Origin: Kondoa subrosea
Taxonomy: Eukaryota
Reading direction: 5' to 3'
Assembly: GCA_039545335.1 (NCBI GenBank)
Contig: BCIN01000003.1
Span: 558,001-622,000, forward strand
Length of the DNA: 64,000 nt
Made by a program: the position numbers and the translations under genes. Under the pieces are notes generated by a model. That model made no database searches. It was not told where the DNA came from and saw only the letters and a list, made by a program, of their open reading frames with translations. Positions 3,104 through 50,100 of this stretch are shown piece by piece; the stretch's first letter is position 1, and every line of letters begins with the position of its first letter.

Positions 3104-6100
3104 ATGACGAAGCGCACAAAGGCTATTGAGAACAAGCGCTTGATTGCTGCGGCAGGCTTTGACAGCGATGCCTCATTGACTGATCTGTCGAATCTCGAAA
3201 ACAACAATGAAACTGGTCAAGGCGATAAAAGCGGCTCTGATGCTAGCGATGACGAAGAAGACGACTCTGATGCATCTGATGATGATGAAGAAGAAGATCA
3301 GACTCACGAAAGCTCGGACGATGATTTCCTCGGTCCAGGCGAGAAACGCAATGCTCGCAAGAAAGGTGGAAAAGGCTCTGATGCTTCTGATTCGGAATCT
3401 GCTTATGAGACGGACTCGGAAAAGCCAAAGAAGATTCGCCGACGCCGCAAAATCCATTGGCCTGTTGAGCAACCTTTCAATGACCTGTCAGACGAGGTAA
3501 GTTACCTACTATCTATCTTCTTTCCCTTGCCGAAACTCTTCTCAAGCTCCTCATTATGATCTTCTCTTTCATTGAGCCTAAAACCAAATCTACCTTGCGC
3601 TTCAGTCAAACTTGCAAGCGTTTCAACAAGATCTCAAAAGGTTTGTTCTGCTGATGTCCTCAAGTATAACTTTGCTTAGGAAAAGATAGGAACCTTATGC
3701 CCGTTCTGAGTGGCTCATTCGACATTTCGGTTCAAACAACGCTTTGTATCACTTGATCCGAATTGGTTCTATCTGTGATGGGCCCACATTAGATTCACTT
3801 CTTGATGGATCTCGCGCACATGCTTCCAAATACTTGTTCCAATGTGCTATTCTTGCTCATGGCCGACGTGGACCTTACTTTCTACCCAAGTAGGTTTGCA
3901 GTCAACGAGATTTGCTTTAATTTGACGAGACATAGAACTTGGTGCAATCCAGAGACTATGCATTTTGCTGCTTATGCTGCTCTTACAAATAAAGCCTCTA
4001 CTTTGTATGGCTCCGAGATGAAGGCAGTCCGCAACAAATGCGACGATGAGGTAAACTCTATTCTAGTCAAAAAGACAGATCGAGCAATGAATTTTGTTGT
4101 TTCTCTAGATCATGCGTGTTTGGTGAGCTATTACTATTAGAGTGTCAGGACGAGATTTTTCTTAATGAAAGATGAAAACAGGCTTGGCTTCTAAAGAAAC
4201 TCGAGCGGAACTGCCACCTCGCTATAAACGTGACAGGCAGCCGTACTTTCGTGGACAGCCTAATCCTTGCGAATGGGTTGTACGCAATTGCAGTGCTGAC
4301 CAGAGAAATCAAGAACTGCTCAAATTTCAAAACGCTCCTCATCAATCATGGTTTTGCTGTGTTCATGCCAATGTAAGCTTTTTGCATATGCCGTAACAGT
4401 GCGCCAACCGAAGTCGCACAGGACCCGATTGCCGAAGTCATCCTCAAAGCCGATCAAAGAGATGCGACTGGGTTGCCGAAACTTGTCGAAAATGGATTCC
4501 GTATTACTCAGTCTTTTGCCGAAGCGACTTTCAAGTACATTGTCCGATCAACTGAATCTCATAATGACAAGTTGGAACTACTTGACCGCTTTACGGAATT
4601 GGCGCCGAATGTCTGCTTGATGACGTTCGACAAAGTCCTGGATCTGCTGAAGAGCAAACACAACCATCTGACGGACGATCAAATTGAGTTCCTGGAGCTG
4701 GTTATAGACACGTATCCTGCATACGAACGTTGTATCCGGTCAATTAGCTTTACTGTCTGCAACGGCTCTAGACACTGACTTTATACGCAGATTAGCCAGT
4801 GCTCAAGTATTGGAGCGTATCCATCTCTGGGTCTGTTCTCTGTGTTTCCGATGATTTCTGCTCATAAGAGCATGGTCGCAGAATTGCAACCACTTCGGTT
4901 TTTTCTACGCTTTACTGCTGCATCTACCACCTCTTATGGAAGGCAACCGTAAACATCTCGAAGAATCGGTTACCAACCTTGTGTTCTTTCTTTTGCAGGG
5001 CGAGTCAAATGTTAGAAAGCTCTTATTGGACAGAATCTTCTATACGAGGCAGAATCCTCCGAATGCATTTCAGAGCCGTACAATCGCTCGTGCTAGATCG
5101 ACTACAGTCGCAGAAGTCAAAACTGCTCTCGAAGCCATGGGAGTAAGCTAGTTTCTCGCTCGAATTAAAACAGCAGCATCCTGACATATTACTAACAGCT
5201 AACTTCATCGTCAGTGCTGTAGTTGGGCGCCGATGGTACAAGCCTGTGGTCCCGATTCCGGATCTTGTCACTTTGATTCGGGGAACCAAGAATTGCGAAG
5301 ATGGATTGCTGCGAGGTTGCATTGTTGCCCTGTGGAATAACCTTACTGTTGGGGGAAATCTCAGCATCGCTTCCAAGCTGACAGGTTCTGTCTCATTCTG
5401 ATAGGCACGTGTTCTCCTCGTACATCAATTGATGCCTGAGTTGCGGGAGAAGCTATCGAAGAAGATCCAGCTCGAGTTCGTCATCAAACCAGAGCTACTG
5501 AGTGTCCATCAAAGCTTCTTCTCGCCTCTTTGTCTGGATGATCAAAATGCTTCTTCCAAGACAAAATTCTATCCTGCTCCTAAGCAAGATTCCACATGGA
5601 GATCTGAGGTATCACAGAAGGCTGAGAGCCCTGTCGGAGGAACACGTGATGGAAGGCAAGTGCAAGCGCTGCTGGTAAGTCGCTCTTTTGAATCAATGGC
5701 TTCGCTGACCAATGCAGCAGACGCTGTATCCGGACGATGAGAAGCTCAAGCGTCTTTTATTGCTACAGTAAGACTTAAGTTCGATTGTTGCTCCTCCTCA
5801 TGCTTTGCTTTAAGTGTTTCTCTCAATCGCAATAAGCATCTCACAGATCTCGTCCTCGACACACTGAAGACTGTGGATCTACGTCTCTTCACCTGTCTTG
5901 CCCGAGCTCATGTCAAGCCTCGATCGTCACATTTCAACGCTATGCTCAAATCAACTGTCGATAGCGGTTTGCCTCATTCAAACCCAATCAAGAGCGATCT
6001 TAAAGCATGGAAGAAGGCTTTGGAATGTTTGACGGAGCAATACCCAGACGCACCAGAGCAAGCGAAAGGCGGAACATTTGTCAAGGTGCGATCTTTGAAT

Positions 6101-18377: not shown

Positions 18378-19562
18378 AAAGTCAAAACTACTTGTAGCAA
18401 GCGGGAAAGCCAATGATGCTCGAAATGAAGGTTGTTTATTGCAACACAGAGGATTAATCACACACGATAAAAGTTTCTATAATGAAAGCCAACACAACAA
18501 CAAAATACTTTAATGCGAAAAGAGCATGATGCTTCCAAAATGTTTAAGTGAGATCAATGACCGTGTCCACCTCCACCACTGCTCGACTCCTTCTCGTTTA
18601 ATAACGCAACCTCTGTTGTAACAAATCAGAATTTCGTTCAATCAGAAAACAGTCAAGAAGAAAAACGCACGATCGACGAATGACCAACTGTCCGCTTCTT
18701 TGTTGTGCACAGCGGTGAGTCTTTGAATTTCCGCAGCGAAATCTTCGAAGACAGTCTAAAATAGGGAGAGGAGTCAGCAAGACAGCTTTGCATTACAGTA
18801 CTTCGACTCACGTTCTTCTTGCCCTTTTCTCTGCGACCGAGGTTAGCCAACCATGGAATAGCGTTGAGGATAGTGTAGATCTGAGGATGAAGTCAGCTCT
18901 GTTTCAGGCAAGAACGGAAAGACAACTCACCAAAGCGCAAATAACAACGACACCGAACGAGTAGATCCAGATTCTCACGACGGTGACAATATCAGTCCAG
19001 CCTCCACGTGGTGCAGTAAGTTCATTGCGTTGTGGTGTGCCAGCGAGCCATCCGAACAAGGTGAAGATGGAAGCGAGAATATCGACACCAAGAATGGCAC
19101 CTGCCGATGAGGAGTTAATATAGTACTAAAAGCGCTCTCAAGATGACGTACCAGTCAATTGCCAAGATGGTAATGTTCCTCCACCACGAGTAACAAAGAT
19201 CAACCAGTTCTCAGTAAGGGCGACTTCCAAGAACAAGATCGATTGGACGTTGCCGAAGTTCTGGACAACACCGTGACCGCCCTGTTTCTCGACGCGTTAG
19301 CACACAACGAGAACTAATCAAGAGAATCAACGTACGAAGATGATACCTTTGGCGTAACCTTGCTCATCGCCGACGAAGAGAGTACCACGCAAGATCCAGG
19401 TTCCCATAGCGAGCAAAACACCCATGATAGAGGAGATAATCCAGACTTAAGGAAGAAGACTCATTAGCGGTGCTCGATGGAAGGCCGAAAACAGAGACTC
19501 ACTCTTAGGTTGTTGCCATTCGACAGGTTGTTTGGCGACGGGAGCGTTATCGTAAGCCTATT
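18378..19562 (-). repeat. Left arm of ~1.2-kb inverted repeat (PMA1 3' exons, introns and 3'UTR)
   Basis: Reverse complement aligns colinearly with 31245-32428. Confidence 0.95.
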
Positions 19563-22500
19563 AAGTCGAGTGAGCAGAGGTGCCATTGTAAGCTCTGCAA
19601 CTGTTGAGCTTACAATGGCAATTGTTGCCACATCGGCGAAGATAGCCAAGAAGACAATCAAGTCGACTCGGATAACTTCGTTGAGGATGAGGATCGACAA
19701 GGTCAAGTAGATTTCCAAGTGCAAGCACAGAGCGATACGGTATTCGATGTAAGCTAGAGAGGAGGATTGAGCAAGAGTCGATTTCAAAAACAGATAGAGC
19801 TCACCCTTCATTCTGTGGAAAATTTCACGAGATACTTTGATGGAAGTAATGATGGTAGATAGACCTTCGTCAAGGAAGACGACATCGGCAGCAGCACGAG
19901 CAGCGTCAGTGGCACCCTAAACAGAACAAATCAGTGAAAACTAAATCCCCAAGATAAAGAAGCTCACTTCGACGGCAATACCGCAATCAGCTCGCTTGAG
20001 TGAAGGAGCATCGTTGGTACCATCACCAGTCATGGCGACTAAGTGATGACGGTCTTGCAAGAGTTCGACGACTTGGTACTTGTGTTCAGGGTAAACTTCA
20101 CCGAAACCATCGGCAGCTTCAACGAAATCGTGAATGGTGGAACCAGACATGCCGTCGCCTCCGGAAATGAGCTTCTGCGAATCGTAGACTTTGGTACCGA
20201 CACCGAGTTGCTTGCAAGTTTCGATAGCGATGGCTACAGCGTCACCGGTTAACATCTTGACCTTGATTCCCAAAACACCGGCTTCACGGATGGTGGAAGC
20301 AGTGTCCCCACGAGGAGGGTCGAACATAGGCAAGAGACCAAGAAGCTTCCATTTGCCATCTTCGTTTAGAGCAACACCCAAAGATCTGAAACCTCGCTTG
20401 GCGAAAGTCATAGTGCGAGCACGGTAAGAGTCGGCTTCTTCCTTTGGAGGTTGGCAAAGCTTGAGAATAGCGTTTGGTGCACCCTTGGCAGCGATGTATT
20501 GTTTACCGTTCTTTGTGACTTCAGCAGTGATACGCTTGGAGACAGGGTCGAAAGGAGTGAACTTTTGAGTTGTCCAGCCTTCACGGAGATGATCTTGAGC
20601 TCGTGGGTACTTGGCAAGAGTTTGGATAGTGACTTTGTCGATAGGATCAAGAGATTTGACAGAGTGGGATGAAGCCAATGCAGCAACCGCCATCATCCAT
20701 TCCATCTCAACACCTTCACACACATATGGTTCGTCAATAGAAAGCTTGTTTGCTGTGAGTGTTCCTGTCTTGTCTGAGCAAAGAATGTCGACACCGGCCA
20801 AAGCTTCAATGGCGGTAAGCTTTTGAACAATAGCTTGTCTTTTTGCAAGGTAAGCAGCTCCGACGGCGAGAGTGGTAGTAGTGACGCAAGGAAGACCGAC
20901 TGGTACACCGATGATCAAGAAGATAAGAGAGTAGACGAGCAAGTTGTTATCTTTAGGTCTGGTAATGCCAACTGATCTGAAGAAACCACCGATCCAGACG
21001 ATGAGGAGCCATACAACGACGAAGACCAGAAGAGCTGTTCCGATTTGAGTCATGACAATTTGGAAATGACCCTTTCGGTTTTCGCCAGAAACGAGAGCTG
21101 CAGTTTTACCGACGAAAGTAGATTTTGCGGTTTCGGTGACCAACATGTAACATTCACCTCGCTTGCAACCGGTAGTGAAGAAGAGGACATCGCCAACGTG
21201 CTTGTCAACAGCGAGAGATTCACCTGAAAGTACGTATTGAGATTAGATTGCGCAAGAGTCAAAGGTATGAGAACTCACCAGTGATACCAGATTGATCAGC
21301 TGACACAATTGGTGGCCCTCTGTCAACTCCTTCTTCATCGTGATCTTCCTTTTCGTTGTCTGCCATGGCGGCCTTTCGGCGAGCGTTTTCAATACCTTGC
21401 AAGATGCGACGAGCAGCAGATCCATCCTTGTCTTCGTAGTCGGCAAGGACTTTGCCATCAGCTGGAATAGTTTGACCGTCCTGAAGAGAGGAAAAATTAG
21501 AATAGGTACGGATGAACCTTGAAAGCAAAGAAACTAACAGAGACGATGACAATATCACCTGGCACAATTTCTCGTGCTTCCATTTCATGCTCTTGACCAT
21601 TTCTGATGACTGTTGCTCTGAGCGCGATACCAGACTTGAGTTGTTCTACGATATCTCCAGCAGCCTTTTCTTGATACCAACCGACGAAGGCGTTCTATGA
21701 CTCGGCATAAAAGGCTGTACGAGTATGCAGTGCACGGACAGCGCTTACAAGGAATAGAATACCAATAATCACACCGAAATCTGAGGTGGACAAGAAAAGA
21801 ATAAGCAAGAAGATCTCGACATTTCTATTTTTAGAGGACTGACCAATCCAATCTTCCAAACCTGCAGCCAGTACTACTGCAATTTCCATGACGTATAGAA
21901 TAGGACCCTGCAGAGTTGAGAAACAGGAGGTCAGAAAAGCAGCATTCGAAAGAGCAAGAAAACATACAGTGAAGAAGGAAAGGAACTTGACAAACATGTT
22001 TTCCCTCTTTGATTCGAGCTCGTTCCAGCCTGCAAGAGCTCTCCTCTTTTTGACTTCTTCTTCCGAAAGACCCCTTCTCATGTCAGTATCGAGCCTTTGT
22101 ATAATGGAGTAAGCATGTTTCATGTTAAACAAACAAACAAAATGCACTCACCATGATTCCGGAGTCTTGAAGGCAGATGAGGCAGCGACAACGTTGCCAT
22201 CCTTGTCGATGGTAACTTTGTTTTTCTTCCAAGGCATGTACCAGACTCTTTTGTATTCAGTCTTGTTTCCACCTTCTTCTTCATCGCCACCACCTGAGCG
22301 GCGAGCGTTGGCAGAATCTTGAATGTATTGAAGAAGGTTGGAGTATTCTTGGTTGCCAGCATCGGGAGCAGACTCATGTTTGCCGTAATCTCCGTTGTGA
22401 GCGGTGCCAGCTCGGGTCTCGTCTGATGAAGGATGTGAGCGATCAGAAGAGGAAGAATGGACTGGTGCTGCTTTTTCTTCAAATTCAGGTAAACGCGGTG

Positions 22501-22636
22501 CAGCTTGACGAGTGGCAACTTGAGGTTGAGCCACTATGTGTTGAGGCGTTCCATGGATATTCTGGTGAGCAACGTTGCCTTGGGAGACGAATTCGTCACC
22601 AACGACGTTGTTGTGAGGTTGATAGCCTTGAGACAT
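18554..22636 (-). CDS. PMA1: Plasma-membrane H+-ATPase (P3A), full-length copy
   Basis: [25 protein letters not shown] phosphorylation site, [34 protein letters not shown]; spliced C-terminus ...[22 protein letters not shown]. Confidence 0.97.
19581..19620. repeat. Perfect 15-bp inverted repeat with 10-nt spacer spanning a PMA1 5' splice site
   Basis: tgccattgtaagctc-tgcaactgtt-gagcttacaatggca; arms are exact reverse complements. Confidence 0.95.
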
Positions 22637-27355: not shown

Positions 27356-30300
27356 ATGCCGCTGCTTAAGGGAAACGATGCAGTCTGTAAGCAGCATCGA
27401 GCTAGTACAGGGCCGGAGCTCACAGACTATCAGTGCGACATGCCACAGAGCAATCTTCTGCACTCTTTGTGTTTGATGGATTCTCATCTCAAGTTGGCTC
27501 GCTACCCAAATCTACAAGTCATTTCAAGATCGAAACTCGATCTGGTTCATCCGCAGCTGTTCTTGGCTACATTCGATCTTTGGGCGGAAAATCATCTGCC
27601 GATGTCAAGCCAATCACTATTCTCTGCACGCCTACTTCTCTCATCGAGTTGACCGCTGTCTTATCAGCTGCTCTGCCTAATGCATCTGCAAGGCCACCTC
27701 TAGTCATTCAAGTTGCTTGCTGTGAACCTGCAATCGAAAGCAAGAGAGAAGATGAATTGCCTTCTCTGCAGCGTTTGCCTGCTGTTGCTTCTCTATTAGC
27801 AGCCTTGCCTTGCTCAAAAGTTTCAGGCAAAAACAACTTTACTCCAACGGTGATTCTGTCCGGTGGATCTGGTGAAGGTGTTCAAGAGATTGCAGATGGT
27901 CTAAAAGCGGTTGAGCATCTGGTCGCCAAAGGATCGGACGTCATTCATGCTTGGGAAGCTGTTGTAGCAGGACAAGAGTTGTCATCGTCTTTGGCTTCAG
28001 CCGAATCATCTGGAATGGAAGTTGAATACTCAAGCAATGAGGAAAGGAAGCCTCTATCTGAAAGCGATGTCAAGTCCATCTTGAACACCGACTTTTTCAG
28101 CTACCACGGACCAGCAAATCCAAACAAGGCCATCGTTTTACCTTCTTCCCTTCACTCAGCAAACGCTTTAGCTGCTTTATCCGCTGCTACCTCTACTGGT
28201 CTAATCATTGCTCGAGTATTACGACCCTGGTCTTCTGAACAACTTAACGCCGCTATTCCAGCCTCAGCCAAAGAAGTTCATGTACTTGAAGGTTCTTTCA
28301 ACGGCAAAGCCTTCTACTTTGACGTCCTAACTGCTATCCAAGAAGGCACCACTCCTCGCCGAGTCAAGCTCCTCACTTTACCAGCTGATGAAGTTTGGAC
28401 TGTGGCCGATTGGAACCAACGTTTCGCTCGATGGGATTCTGGTGAAGCTAAACCTGCTCCTCCTGCTCCCCTTTTATCGAGCAACAGCAAGTTGGCCGTC
28501 TTTTGGTCACCTGATGAAGGCAAAACAGCTGGTTTGGCTGATCGATTAGCTGCTCAATTCACCAATCAAGGTGGAGTTGAGACAAGGTTGTTGAATGAAT
28601 ACGACAACTTCTCTGGCAAAGAAGGTGGCTTGCAAAGGTCTACTCTGTTGCTGTCGCCTGCCGATGCAGAGAAGAAAGGTGTTCAGCATTCACTCAGTGC
28701 TTTGGTGGAAACCTCTTCTCCTGGTTTGCTCTTCCTTTCTGGACCGCCTTCCATTCTTGCTGCATACAGTCCTTTGGTTACCATTGATATCAACACTCAA
28801 GTCATTTTCTCCAATTCTTCTTGGACTCCAGAAGAATATGGCGAAAAACTCAATGCTGCGGATAAATCCACTTTGATCGCTCGATCTGGTGAAGGCAAGC
28901 TTTGGACTCTGGATGTCGCTTCAGTTGTTTCCGCTTCTGGTCTACTGGCAAGTGATGCACTGGTCGAAGAAGCTGCTTTCTTCCTTCTCTACTACAACTC
29001 TTTGCCAGCTGAAGAAGCTACTTCAACCATTGCCAAATTATTGACTCTTTCCCCTGCTGGCGGAGAATGGTCAGAAGAAGCTTTCAAAGGTTTGGTAGAA
29101 CATACGAGAAACGCTTTGAAACAAATAAAGATGGTTCCCTACGAAGGTGAAGGTCAACCAGCAGCTGCAGCAGAAGTAGACACTGCTTCGCCCGAATCAA
29201 TCAATATCTTGCCTACTCATATCCTTGGCAATGCTATCGGTCCAAACAAGAAAAAGTCTTTCCCTGATGCTGAGCCTACTGCACCACCTGCTTGGCATAT
29301 CGCTGCTAAACAACTTCTCTTCTCTGAAGCTTACGCAACTCAAGTAGATGCCACTCGTCCAGATTTGCCGGAAGAGAACTTCGTCCTCACTGTCACCGAG
29401 AACCGTCGTCTAACTCCATTAGATTACGATCGCAATGTCTTCCACCTTGAACTTTCTACCAAAGGAACAGGACTGAAATACGCTGTTGGTGAAGCTCTTG
29501 GTGTTCATGGTTTCAATGATGAGACCGAAGTAAAAGAGTTCATCGAATGGTACGGTTTGGATCCCGATGCAGTGGTCACTTTGCCCGACAGAGAACATCC
29601 TCATCTCAAATCGGAAGCAAGAACCGTTTTCCAAATCTTCCAGCAGAATTTGGATATCTTTGGTAAACCTGGCAAAGCTTTCTACGAGGCTTTGTCGAAA
29701 GTAGCGACCAACAGAGAAGAGTCAAGACATTTGAGATTCATTGGTTCAGCTGAAGGAAGTGCCACATTCAAAAAATGGTCCGATGTTGACACCGTCACCT
29801 ATGTCGATGTTCTAAAAGCTTTCCCAAGCACAAAAGCCAAACTTGGTTTGAGTGGTCTGTTGAGAGAAGTACCGATGATCAAACCTCGCCATTACTCTAT
29901 TGCAAGCAGTCAGAACTTTGTTGGCGATAGTGTGCATTTATTGGTGGTTACCGTTGACTGGATGACTCCTTCAGGTAAGGCTTGCGCTTGCTTTGGGACT
30001 TATATGTCAAGCGGCTAACGGCATTACAGAGGTCACACGATTCGGTCAATGTACTCGCTATTTAGCAAAACTAAATATTGGCGACAAAGTTATGGTTTCC
30101 GTCAAACCTTCCGTTATGAAGCTTCCACCTCGCGATACTCAGCCAGTCATTATGGCTGGTCTTGGTACAGGGTACGTCTTCCTTCTTTAATCAGTCTAAG
30201 CACACTGCTAACTTTGATCGCAGGGCTGCACCTTTCCGTGCTTTCATCCAAGAAAGAGAATGGCAGCGGAACCAGGGCAAAGAGATCGGTCCTTTGCTTT

Positions 30301-30898: not shown

Positions 30899-31244
30899 GC
30901 GAATTGTACTTGTTTTCGGTTGATAGACATGTGGTACTTTATTATGCGTACATTGAATGCTCACTGTGGCGCCTGTATCTCTCCGTGAGTTACCAGCTCT
31001 GTGTCGTTCGAGCTGTCCTTCTTTGTTTGCTCCGATAAGGTCATCATCCGGCCGAGACTTCAGTCTAGGCGCATAGCCATGATGAATGCAAGGCTAGCCG
31101 GTATTGTAGAAGATTTGCCTTGTTTTGTTGATTCTTGTTCTTCATTCAAATTGTCCGCTTGACTTGATTCTCTTCTTGGCTATCTCCATTGAACACAAGC
31201 TTCTCCCCTTTCTTCCCCTCCATCGACTTCTAGTGGCCAATCGG

Positions 31245-32428
31245 ATAGACCTGCGATAACGCTCCTGTCGCCAACAATCTGTCGAATGGCAACAACCTAA
31301 GTGAGTCTCTGTTTTCGGCCTTTCGTCGAGCATTGCTGATGAGTCTTCTCCTTCAAGTTTGGATTATTTCCTCTATCATGGGTGTTCTGCTCGCTATGGG
31401 AACCTGGATCTTGCGTGGTACTCTCTTCGTCGGCGATGAGCAAGGTTATGCCAAAGGTATCATCTTCGTACGTCGATTCTCTGCAAAGAGCTCGCTTTGT
31501 GCTAATGTGTCGAGTATAGGGTGGTCACGGTGTTGTCCAAAACTTCGGCAACGTTCAATCGATCTTGTTCTTGGAAGTCGCCCTCACTGAGAACTGGTTG
31601 ATCTTCGTTACTCGTGGTGGAGGAACATTACCATCTTGGCAATTGACTGGTACGTCACCTTAAGCGCGTTTTTAGTATCAAAGTAACCCCTCAGCTGCAG
31701 GTGCCATTCTTGGTGTCGATATTCTCGCTTCTATCTTCACCTTGTTCGGATGGCTCGCTGGCACACCACAACGCAATGAAATTACTGCACCACGGGGAGG
31801 CTGGACTGACATTGTCACCGTCGTGAGAATCTGGATCTACTCGTTCGGTGTTGTTGTCATTTGCGCTTTGGTGAGTTTCCTTTCCGTTTTTTCTTTCCAT
31901 TCATCAAGGCTGACTTCATCCTCAGATCTACACTATTCTCAACGCTATTGCATGGTTGGCTAATCTCGGTCGCAGAGAAAAGGGCAAGAAGAACACCGTC
32001 TTCGAAGACTGTACGTTTTTGATGCTCAGATGTGCTGTTTCTATCCTGATTAATATTATCTTTGATAGTCGCTGCGGAGATTCAACGTCTCACTGCTGTG
32101 CACAACAAAGAAGCGGACAGTTGGTCATTCGTCGATCGTGCGGTTTTCTTCTCCACTGTTTTCCGATTGACCGAAATTCTGATTTGCTACAACAGAGGTT
32201 GCGTTATTAAACGAGAAGGAGTCGAGCAGCGGTGAAGGTGGACACGGTCATTGATCTCACTTAAACGTGTTGGGAGCATTAAGCTCTTTTCGCATTAAAG
32301 TATTTTGTTGTTATGTTGGCTTTCATTATAGAAACTTTTATCGTGTGTAATTAATCCTCTGTGTTGCAATAAACAACCTTCATTTCGAGCATCATTGGTT
32401 TTGCCACTTATTCAAAATAGCTTTGACT
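31245..32428 (+). repeat. Right arm of inverted repeat: duplicated PMA1 3' end including 3'UTR with AATAAA
   Basis: Colinear inverted match to 18378-19562, exons highly similar, introns more diverged. Confidence 0.95.
31249..32254 (+). other. Headless PMA1 3' module (last transmembrane helices plus C-terminal tail); intact reading frame, no 5' half in cis
   Basis: Spliced [20 protein letters not shown]...[14 protein letters not shown]...[11 protein letters not shown]...GEGGHGH*; all GT-AG sites retained; upstream DNA is the MET10 3' region, not ATPase sequence. Confidence 0.85.
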
Positions 32429-32841
32429 ATCTTTGAAGCAGGGGTTAGCGTTGAGCATCACATGAACTAAAGAATTGGATCAAACATAGTGGATCTGGAT
32501 TTCGCGATGAATTCCGAGCAAGTGAATAGAACGGATGCATGCGACCACGGCAAGCACAGGGAATGATGACACCGCATCCCATTCAATGAGATGTTCGACA
32601 GAAAGAAGGAAAGCATGAGGAAAAGAAAAAGATACTTGTATATGAGAATGCAAACTTCCATGCTAAATAGAACATCTCTAAAGGCGTTTACTTCCTGTTC
32701 CAGGGGCTGTACCAAACCCTTTCCAAAAATCGTTCTAGCTCAGCCAGGATCTTTCACAAATAAGAAGAGGAGATGAAGGGAAAATGTAGCAAATTCGTCG
32801 TTTTCATGATTTCGTTTGCTCCGGAAACGCCGCAATGGTCT

Positions 32842-35686: not shown

Positions 35687-37365
35687 TTAATCACTGTCCG
35701 TGTCAGGTGCCGGCTTGACCATACGCTTGAGCTTGACTTTCCTTCTTAATACTGATAGGTCTTTCGTCTCATCATCCGCATCGCTTTGAAAATCATCTGG
35801 ACCCGTTCGAAAACTGATATCTTGTGCTTGTGGCTTCTTTTGACCAACCACAGTCTTCTTCGTAACCTTCTTCGATCTAACCAGACTACCAGTTGCCGCC
35901 TTTGGCTTCTTAACCGCTTTTTGCTCGCGAACAGCTTTCGGAATCAACTTCGGCTTGGGATCTACGTCCATTGATTGCTCCTTCTTGACAATTCTAGCAA
36001 GGGCTGGACTTTCAGGCTCGCTTTCCGTACAACTTTCTTCTTCTTTTTTCGCATCAAGCAGAGTAGAAAGCTTCTGCTGTGTGATCTTCTGTAAAGGTTT
36101 TCTTCGAGGTACCCATTTCAGAGAAGGCACAATTTCTTCCTCGCTTTCAGTGACACTGTCCTCTTCCTCAACATGAGTCGACTTGAACTGTGCAACGGAT
36201 TTAGCTTGAAGAGTTTGAGGTGAAGGCAGACGCTTCGTTGGAAGAGGAAGGAAAGACGTTTCTTCTTCACTTTCCGTTTCGCTTCCTTCCGCTAGATCTT
36301 CAGGTAAATCTTCAAATCCTCCATTCAACGCAATACGTTCTGCTTCTGCTTCTCGACTGAGCTTGTATTTGGGAAGACTGAGGGTTTCGAGGTAGATCTA
36401 ACAACATAATGTCAGTCATGCGCTCTACATGATCAAAAACAAACTCACAGAATGCATCTCGAGCAATTCTTTTCGAGAATGCAAAGTACATCGCATTCCA
36501 GCTGGACTGTGCTTCTTGGGTAAATCTTCACCGTCTTTCGAATAGATCCCAGCTATCGAATAGATATCGGGCTTGAAGGAATTGACGTCTAGATCCATTT
36601 TCCGGAAGAGAATCTAGCAAGCTGTTTAGCTGATTATCATAGGAGATGGTATAATACCGCTCACATCATGTACTTTGGCGACCTCCGCTAAATCATAGCT
36701 GTTCTCGATGTAGATGCATCTGTTGAAGGTCTTGAGTATTCGCTTGAAGTCTGTCCCAAGCCAATACTCACATGACTCGAGCCTAATAGAAGAGGTCATC
36801 GGATGTACAGAAGAATCAGCGGCCGATATACTCACAGGTTTGCCATTTTCAGTCGAAACTTTGGCTGCAGTAACGCTAGGGTAGCTGGAAGTCAGAACGG
36901 TGATGCTGATCATTCAATTACTGACGCACCTCGTATCACGAAGCTTCCCAGTAGGACTCAAGATAGCCTCGACAATGGCATTCCATTTCTTGTCAACACG
37001 ATGAGCATAAGAATAGATAAGCATTTTGCCCGAAAGGATGTTTGTGAGGTTCGCAATCATCTCCAAGTTTTGATGAGCAGTAGCAAAGAGTTCAGCACAT
37101 TTCAAAGCTTTGGCTTGTCTATTCAGTGGGTTGGTCTTCGCATCAAGATTAGCCAAGTCTGTTTTGAGTGTCGCAAGCAGTTCTCCGCTGTACGCTTGAG
37201 CTTCTTCCCTTCGCTCTGATATACAGTCAGCATTCAATAGGGCAATGATAACGCTAACTTACCTGGTCTTATTGTCACTTGGCTCCGACTTCGTCGGTGG
37301 ACAAAGATCCAACGCGTTTCCTTCGCAAGAAATCAGACATGGCTCTCACAGACGCATTGAACATA
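35687..37365 (-). CDS. Hypothetical multi-exon protein with acidic/Lys-rich C-terminus; possible degenerate 3'-5' exonuclease-like segment; start approximate
   Basis: Consecutive minus-strand ORFs joined by GT-AG introns; TESE repeats in the last exon. Confidence 0.5.
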
Positions 37366-48538: not shown

Positions 48539-50100
48539 ATGATTGCTCGACTTCCACCATCTGCTGCAAGGCTGGCCCGGAATTTGCGGTCTTTCGCAAC
48601 CGTTCAAAGCGGTTTTCCCACTTCGCAGAGCGGCGCGCAACTAGTCGACACCGACGGTCAACCAGCTGCTTTGCACTTGAAGTCAGGTCAAGTCTTCAAG
48701 GGGCGTTCGTTTGGTGCGCCTCAATCAGCCTTTGGCGAAACGGTCTTCTCCACTTCCATCACTTCTTACACAGAATCAATGACCGATCCTTCTTATCTGA
48801 AACAACTTCTTGTCTTCACTACTCCAATGATCGGAAATTATGGTGTTCCAGCCAATCATCTTTCAGACGAGGCAGCCGCAAATGGTCCGCCAGTCTTTCT
48901 CGAAAGCGACGGCATCAAGTGTGCGGGCGTCATTGTTGGTGATGTGGCCGAGAAGTTCTCTCATTATCAAGCGGTTGAGAGTATATCGCAATGGTGCAAG
49001 CGAAATGGTATTCCTGGGATTACTGGCGTGGACACAAGAGCAATCACCACTCTTCTTCGTCAGCAAGGTACTACACTTGGTAAACTCGCTATTGGTGAAA
49101 AAGAAGCCGATGTACCTGTTGAACAAGATGGCTACTACGATCCAAGCGTAGAAAACCTCATTGCTCAAGTTTCTACTCCTGAGCCATACACTTTGAATCC
49201 TCAAGGCGATGTCAAGATTGCTGTTCTCGACTTTGGTTCCAAAGCCAACATTCTTCGTTCTTTGGTCAAAAGAAATGCGGCCATCACTGTCTTCCCATGG
49301 AACTACGACTTCAACTCAGTTCGAGATCAGTTTGATGGTCTTTTCCTGACAAACGGTCCTGGTGATCCAAAGCACGCTATGCCAGCTGCTTTGAAGCTTC
49401 GCAAAACTTTAGAAGAATGGAGGAAACCTATCTTTGGCATTTGCATGGGCAACCAAGTTCTGGGTTTGGCTGCCGGTTTGGATGCGTACAGAATGGCCTT
49501 TGGAAACCGAGGTCACAATCAACCGGTTCTGGCGCTTGCTTCCTCCGGTTCTATTGTTGCCGGACGAGTTTACATTACTTCCCAGAATCGTAGGCGTGTT
49601 TGACAGCGAAAAAGTTTTTCACTGACTGTTATCTGTAGATCAATATGCTCTGAAGCTAGTAGACCCCTTCCCTGAAGGATGGGAGCCTTGGTTCATCAAT
49701 GCAAATGTAGGTCTCTTGCAGCTGATGTACAGCTTGTACTCAATGGTTGTCGGACCGTACAGGACTCAAGCATTGAGGGCATTAAAAGCACAAAGGAGAG
49801 CGGCAAGTTCGTCTGGGCTGCTCAATTCCACCCTGAGTGAGTTCACTCGATGTACGCGGGGATGCTTGCTAACGTGAAGGCTTCTTCAGATCTGCTGGAG
49901 GACCTCTTGACACGATGTAAGTGATTGTTGCCGCTCGGCAATTCAGACTTCATGCTCATCCCTCTCATAGGACTCTCTTTGACGATTTCGTTGGTGTATG
50001 CCGGGCAATGAGCCAGAACAACACGAGCAATCCTTCTGCAATCTTTCACTCTCCTGTTCACAAGGTCGTCAGAGGCAAGACCATCGCTGTAGAAGCATGA
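48539..50100 (+). CDS. CPA1: Carbamoyl-phosphate synthase arginine-specific small subunit (arg-2 orthologue)
   Basis: Mitochondrial presequence, GETVFSTS, TDPSY, PMIGNYG, NGPGDP, FGICMG, GNRGHNQP, TSQNHQY, QFHPE. Confidence 0.96.

Follow-up and report, generated by a model that had tools for sequence, protein, structure and literature searches.

The plasma-membrane H+-ATPase gene PMA1 of Kondoa subrosea lies on the minus strand of a 64,000-nt stretch of contig BCIN01000003.1 (GenBank assembly GCA_039545335.1, positions 558,001 to 622,000), which was analyzed as a whole and is referred to here as the window; all coordinates are those of this window. Intron 9 of the gene harbors a perfect 15-bp hairpin in which the 5' splice site is paired with the middle of the intron, and this hairpin is the subject of the present analysis. 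As evidenced by a walk against close transcript-derived proteins, the coding region (22636..18554, minus strand) is intact, being free of internal stops and interrupted by 15 introns that are each 50-63 nt long. Its product is 91-92% identical to two such proteins (1001/1083 for P0002 and 985/1079 for P0003), and the next-best database proteins are basidiomycete PMA1s with an identity of approximately 76-77%. The closest relatives of the gene are transcripts (P0002, P0003 and L001), while the genomic relatives are at most 72% identical and lack the intron in question.

Intron 9 of 15 (19613..19558, minus strand) is 56 nt long and in phase 0, starts with GTAAGC and ends with TAG. Its boundaries are supported by the gene walks, by a relative's protein that aligns to 19614 and picks up again at 19557, and by three RNA contigs of relatives from a phyllosphere metatranscriptome that show a net skip of 56 nt; P0002 and P0003 are likewise continuous across the junction. 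Note that the runs matching the locus are of two sorts, DNA contigs from what may be the source sample (X1, X2) and RNA contigs of small share from relatives, and that among the matches listed the junction evidence, from contigs of X1, X3, X4 and X9 (four of the nine runs), concerns the junctions of relatives only. A branch-site-like CTCAC lies, together with the acceptor, in the final 23 nt of the intron. Retention would shift the reading frame, which reaches a stop 49 codons on, at 19466..19464.

The 3' part of PMA1, including its introns and 3' untranslated region, is present a second time in the window in inverted orientation. The left arm of this high-identity inverted repeat, within PMA1 itself, extends from 19561 to 18376 on the minus strand, and the right arm (31245..32432, plus strand), a truncated remnant of a PMA paralogue, is 91% identical to it overall, with 95% in exons and 84% in introns.

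The hairpin in intron 9 is formed by a perfect inverted repeat with arms at 19581-19595 and 19606-19620, complementary at 15 of 15 positions and separated by a 10-nt spacer. Read in the sense of the gene (minus strand), the 5' arm (19606..19620) joins the final 7 nt of the upstream exon to the 8 nt with which the intron begins, the GTAAGC donor among them. The loop (19596..19605) corresponds to intron positions 9-18, and the 3' arm (19581..19595), an exact reverse complement of the exon/intron junction, to intron positions 19-33. All pairs are of the Watson-Crick type, with zero G-U pairs and zero mismatches. An earlier note on this DNA, made from its letters, had reported a perfect 15-bp hairpin over the PMA1 5' splice site, and arms, loop and junction are all as it described them.

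When the window was scanned for perfect stems closed by loops of 3-40 nt, only two reached 10 bp or more, one of exactly 10 bp and the 15-bp hairpin at the PMA1 donor. For stems of at least 15 bp the analytic expectation is 0.0023 per window, and a 12-bp stem of any kind was present in 20 of 150 Markov-resampled windows. A sliding 44-nt fold along both strands (31,980 windows; mean -6.3 kcal/mol, standard deviation 3.1 kcal/mol) ranks the hairpin site first, with -27.0 kcal/mol on the plus and -24.4 kcal/mol on the minus strand, followed among unrelated sites by an imperfect, GC-rich stem at 48633-48676 with -23.7 kcal/mol. The 40-nt sense RNA of the hairpin is predicted to fold at -23.9 kcal/mol (z -6.9), and the z value is -4.6 in a 121-nt context. 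Rfam covariance models gave 0 matches to 19300-19900 at E values up to 1. Within the 64-kb window we found no other copy of the hairpin intron or of its arm beyond chance: the arm has one further match, with 2 mismatches, at 4366-4380, and 40 of 100 shuffles yield at least 3 matches. A partner site for a recombinase was not found beyond chance in the window either, where no search aimed at recombinase genes was made.

A separately assembled contig of run X1, which may be the source sample of the window itself, spans 19386-20282 including the hairpin with 0 differences, at a depth of 46 and in single copy. It follows that the palindrome was not created by a single assembler. The hairpin is real, statistically unusual, and single-copy in the window.

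With respect to the splice site, the stem spans positions -7 to +8 of the donor and thus -3 to +6, and the mean probability of these positions being unpaired in the predicted ensemble is 0.00. The other 14 introns of PMA1 serve as an internal reference. Here the best perfect pairing of the donor region (-8..+10) with the rest of the intron amounts to 3-5 bp, and a shuffle control for the donor stems of the gene averaged 4.2 and did not go beyond 8 in 600 shuffles. For thirteen of these donor contexts the fold energies range from -2.1 to -9.6 kcal/mol and the mean probabilities unpaired from 0.30 to 0.80, and the remaining one, the donor at 19804 (intron 19804..19754, minus strand, placed by the gene walk), shows a low predicted accessibility (0.03) through a weak fold of -10.3 kcal/mol only. 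Among 181 donor-like hexamers on both strands of the window, the distribution of best stems matches that of shuffled sequences except at two loci, the only ones to exceed 8 bp: the PMA1 hairpin and a case with 10 of 11 positions complementary at 27387 (plus strand). The latter was rejected as a second donor-covering stem, since it is no more than chance would give among 181 sites (a value of 10 is attained in 3 of 1810 shuffles), and a fold at approximately 36729-36776 with -19.4 to -21.7 kcal/mol was rejected because it sits in a probable exon. To the question, raised in the earlier note, whether such palindromes are common background, the answer for this 64-kb window is no; within it, the donor-covering hairpin is a one-off.

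High identity to the second copy of PMA1 stops at about 19561, 20 nt from the hairpin. The earlier note had placed the hairpin some 20 nt from the end of homology, which is right for the high-identity tract but not for homology as such, since the latter resumes in a 27-nt island at 19638..19664 (minus strand) that is identical in 25 of 27 positions to 31161-31187. The hairpin lies inside a non-alignable patch of 76 nt (19562..19637, minus strand; 24 exon and 52 intron nucleotides) between homologous flanks and not at an outer border, so that its intron does not cleanly separate unique from duplicated exons as had been assumed. This patch is the only large one at that end of the repeat. On the right (31161..31244, plus strand), the counterpart of the island is followed by a non-alignable patch of 57 nt (31188-31244) that contains no hairpin. 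A palindrome was looked for at the edge of the right copy and, in agreement with the earlier note, none was found, nor did the right patch hold a recognizable remnant of the hairpin arms. In the 60 nt upstream of the island, 26 of 60 positions are identical in register, a level reached by 15 of 5000 shuffles, and the X1 contig of the right copy aligns as far as 19664, where it has a loose end.

Compared with PMA1, the second copy is identical in 640 of 672 exon positions, in 225 of 267 intron positions (intron 13 left out) and in 161 of 178 positions of the 3' untranslated region, and the codon differences between the two comprise 22 synonymous and 8 non-synonymous ones. These differences fit purifying selection on both copies through most of their divergence. 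Because exons are better conserved than introns and synonymous changes are in excess, the right copy looks like the remnant of a once-functional, recently truncated PMA paralogue and not like a fresh duplication of a gene fragment. It is cut off approximately 260 nt downstream of the point where the last open frame of the neighboring gene ends (30898). In its first exon there are two deletions (-1 and -2) which, taken together, bring the frame back after about 10 codons. In the DNA of X1, a second version of 20144-20709 and of 22030-22330 was observed that is approximately 92% identical, is absent from the window and ends at 20144 in unrelated sequence; the segment 19562-20143 appears to be single-copy in X1. 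This arrangement suggests that a second PMA gene was broken and that its pieces flank exactly the region with the hairpin intron; another broken piece of the paralogue may thus lie in a different part of the genome.

How could a perfect reverse complement of an exon/intron junction come to lie within the same intron? The origin that we favor, with confidence evenly balanced between acceptance and doubt, is that the hairpin is a young scar of template switching at the DNA level, a quasi-palindrome mutation. A polymerase would briefly have copied the opposite or the nascent strand at the PMA1 intron and would have written the 15-nt reverse complement of the junction of exon end and 5' splice site into the intron. 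The copied block would have fallen into the only unconstrained stretch available, between the donor and the block of branch site and acceptor. Plausibly, this took place during error-prone repair synthesis tied to recombination of PMA1 with its inverted, now truncated paralogue. The stem of -24 kcal/mol in the pre-mRNA, which would hide the whole U1 binding site and lower the splicing efficiency of the intron, would then be a by-product, and the hairpin would not be a selected riboregulator. What the sequence shows is the structure, its uniqueness in the window, the gene model and the place of the hairpin with respect to the homology tracts; which arm was copied, by what mechanism, whether recombination was involved and how splicing is affected are matters of inference.

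The assignment of source and product follows from the nature of the arms. As one of them consists of conserved coding sequence and a splice donor, the exon/donor arm appears to be the older source and the intronic 3' arm the derived copy; the residues at the exon end are contiguous and conserved in all 17 loci of relatives that were obtained from DNA in one metagenome scan, as well as in P0002 and P0003. The copied arm, at intron positions 19-33, fills the free middle of the intron, and as the total of 56 nt stays within the usual 50-63 nt of this gene, a replacement of sequence fits better than an insertion. Fifteen pairs that are all Watson-Crick without any wobble are what copying of DNA would be expected to leave behind. 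Template switching is reported to create a perfect stem in one event (Monttinen and Loytynoja 2022, PMC8794818; see also PMC5453318), short-range mutations of this type have been described by Loytynoja and Goldman (2017, PMC5453318), and in budding yeast, mutation during gene conversion is reported at approximately 1000 times that of replication, including the perfection of quasi-palindromes (bioRxiv 10.1101/2023.08.09.552703). The sequence of the paralogue is scrambled at the same place as the hairpin, and the position near the end of the tract plausibly fits an origin linked to recombination. A second non-alignable patch, that of intron 13, also coincides with a palindrome (31998-32009), a coincidence that we regard as suggestive of template switching. 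Of the options listed in the earlier note, a template-switch scar has turned out to be the best-supported origin; the accompanying idea that the scar stems from the event that produced the inverted duplication calls for revision, the right copy being a diverged paralogue remnant.

Several observations weigh against a template-switch origin. That the hairpin lies so close to the end of the tract is one coincidence, and the hairpin DNA was seen in one sample only (X1). Similarity between the patches of the two copies is at chance level (the score is reached by 1631 of 2000 shuffles in global and by 579 of 2000 in local alignment); alignments made by hand on shared 5-7-mers were set aside as unreliable. 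A templated source or microhomology for the rest of the patches was not found, matches being confined to 9-12-mers at chance level (approximately 35 9-mers expected). A strong stem over the 5' splice site of an essential and highly expressed gene should be costly, and its persistence is unexplained unless the hairpin is very recent, tolerated or useful.

The expectation of such a cost rests on experiments in yeast. In the budding yeast work of PMC12637734, designed 13-bp stems sequestering the 5' splice site are reported to have disrupted splicing, and under selection mutants that destabilized splice-site stems arose fast; base pairing at splice sites is described as shifting gene output in yeast over orders of magnitude (PMC12637734; see also PMC10726166). 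In view of these results and the predicted burial of the PMA1 donor, reduced splicing of the hairpin intron is to be expected, and in terms of the fold model the stem should hinder binding of U1 and thereby lower the splicing of this intron. The reduction may be tolerated, the hairpin may be very recent, or it may be used for regulation.

The last of these options leads to the alternative that survives best, although we consider it unlikely: a selected RNA switch, in which the hairpin is kept because it slows removal of the intron or makes it conditional, for instance on helicase activity, temperature or the speed of transcription, thereby adjusting proton-pump output. This was also one of the options in the earlier note, and its structural half stands: the predicted stem over donor positions -7 to +8, with -23.9 kcal/mol (z -6.9), buries the U1 site and leaves the donor essentially never unpaired in the fold, where the other 14 donor contexts of PMA1 fold at just -2.1 to -10.3 kcal/mol. 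In favor of selection, the gene is intact and conserved, so that a strongly harmful structure might have been purged, and the yeast data cited above (PMC12637734) indicate how far pairing at a splice site can alter output. However, perfect Watson-Crick pairing without wobble resembles copying more than selection, and nothing comparable is present in the other introns. In a more elaborate form, the hairpin would be a naturally selected gate through which RNA unwinding, temperature or the speed of transcription would control PMA1 output, with retention of the intron leading to a frameshifted, decay-prone message; a compatible second idea is that the sister paralogue broke at this very palindrome, as a point of fragility. 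We regard this fuller version as slightly less probable still.

Similarly improbable in our view is that the hairpin marks the recent birth or relocation of the intron itself, through an event that made use of the local exon junction copied in inverse orientation. None of the 17 loci of relatives has an intron at this codon boundary, all of them reading straight through the junction, and two have one 10 nt downstream (L008 and L011, both metagenome relatives, where it is in phase 1). The 6 nt with which the downstream exon opens also give, as their reverse complement, the donor hexamer, and intron 13 is offset by 16 nt between the two copies, with unrelated sequence, from which it follows that intron positions are mobile here. 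On the other hand, the absence from 17 loci is uninformative on the age of the intron, because the relatives are without the other C-terminal introns of this gene as well: those that do bear introns share none of these positions, although the automatic walk is noisy for distant loci. In addition, the right copy retains the last 4 nt of the intron at the tract edge, which is weak evidence against a recent birth, length and signals of the intron are ordinary, and the 6-nt match of donor and exon is a post hoc observation.

Less probable again is that the palindrome is old and predates the split of the paralogues, being a fragile site that broke or scrambled the second copy at the same intron, or that blocked extension of a gene-conversion tract. 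In its favor, the end of the tract, the 5' truncation of the right copy and the patch in the latter all coincide with the position of the hairpin. No recognizable remnant of an arm is found in the right copy, however, and arms of 15 bp with a 10-nt spacer are short for the fragility associated with cruciforms or hairpins.

Chance complementarity we judge to be quite improbable. The scan spans very many windows, so that events of 0.002 per window turn up somewhere and chance hairpins of such rarity must exist somewhere within it; moreover, the number of 10-bp stems in this window is at chance level. Against this stand the expectation of 0.0023 for the window itself and the coincidence of the hairpin with a real donor and a homology boundary. 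A protein-binding or site-specific recombination site in the DNA, or a mobile intron of the introner-like or symmetrical stwintron-like kind, is the least probable reading, for although the 15-10-15 geometry had led the earlier note to think of a recombinase and symmetrical, proliferating introns are reported to occur in some fungi (PMC8469720), there is neither a second copy of the arm in the 64 kb beyond chance nor an Rfam match in 19300-19900, the repeat is not terminal but has its first 7 nt in the exon and stops 23 nt short of the acceptor, and no target-site duplication is discernible by eye in the flanks.

Seen against known systems, the hairpin belongs to two established kinds, template-switch hairpins and stems that mask splice sites. 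With template-switch or quasi-palindrome mutations as described in PMC5453318, PMC8794818 and bioRxiv 10.1101/2023.08.09.552703, it shares a perfect reverse-complement repeat within a few bases of its source, pairs that are exclusively Watson-Crick, a non-coding location and an adjoining recombination tract. Those mutations, however, are defined by a comparison of the states before and after, with a sister or ancestor, whereas the PMA1 case is read from one sequence; it also differs from them, as they are described there, in that its source arm is an exon/donor junction and its product masks a splice site.

Artificial hairpins at splice sites of budding yeast go back to Goguel, Wang and Rosbash (1993), as cited in PMC10726166 and PMC12637734, and further structures at splice sites have been described for a retroviral 5' splice-site stem-loop (PMC2794156) and for exon 7 of SMN2 (PMC1802598). 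Like these sequestering hairpins, the PMA1 stem holds the whole U1 target, and its predicted stability is at least that of the designed inhibitory stems reported in PMC12637734. Unlike them, it is natural, perfect and 15 bp long, resides in a constitutive 56-nt intron of an essential fungal gene, and is known from sequence and fold prediction. The symmetrical stwintrons and introner-like elements of PMC8469720 and PMC9860276 are also fungal introns with internal inverted symmetry. As described there, they are multi-copy and wholly intronic, with terminal inverted repeats of 45-55 nt, whereas the PMA1 hairpin is single in the window and has 15-nt arms, one reaching into the exon and the other in mid-intron.

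If the hairpin is indeed the scar of a template switch, it provides a clean natural example of a single such event making a perfect RNA hairpin beside a recombination tract between paralogues, and a useful test of how far burial of a splice site is tolerated by a fungal spliceosome in vivo, in an essential gene. If it was selected, it would be an example, rare in nature, of constitutive splicing that is gated by RNA structure in a fungus.

Some further observations concern the second copy and the background loci. At 27360-27420 (plus strand), the probable first intron of a sulfite-reductase-like gene has an exon end and donor that are complementary in 10 of 11 positions to its branch-site region; the gene has a long open frame at 27406-30018. 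Intron 13 of PMA1 differs between the copies. In the left one (18756-18811, minus strand) it follows an AAC codon in phase 0 and is 56 nt long, and in the right one (31990-32075) it is found 16 nt further on, in phase 1, with a length of approximately 58 nt. Although the two introns cannot be aligned with each other, splicing yields the same protein, and the intron has apparently been relocated between the paralogues. The shifted 16-nt piece of exon in the right copy holds the perfect 12-nt palindrome at 31998-32009, and the start of the left intron 13 resembles this piece. Finally, the sequence upstream of the right island (31100-31160) is T-rich, and by hand count approximately 10 of its 34 differences from PMA1 are positions with C in PMA1 and T here, so that this decayed part of the right copy may have undergone C-to-T hypermutation.

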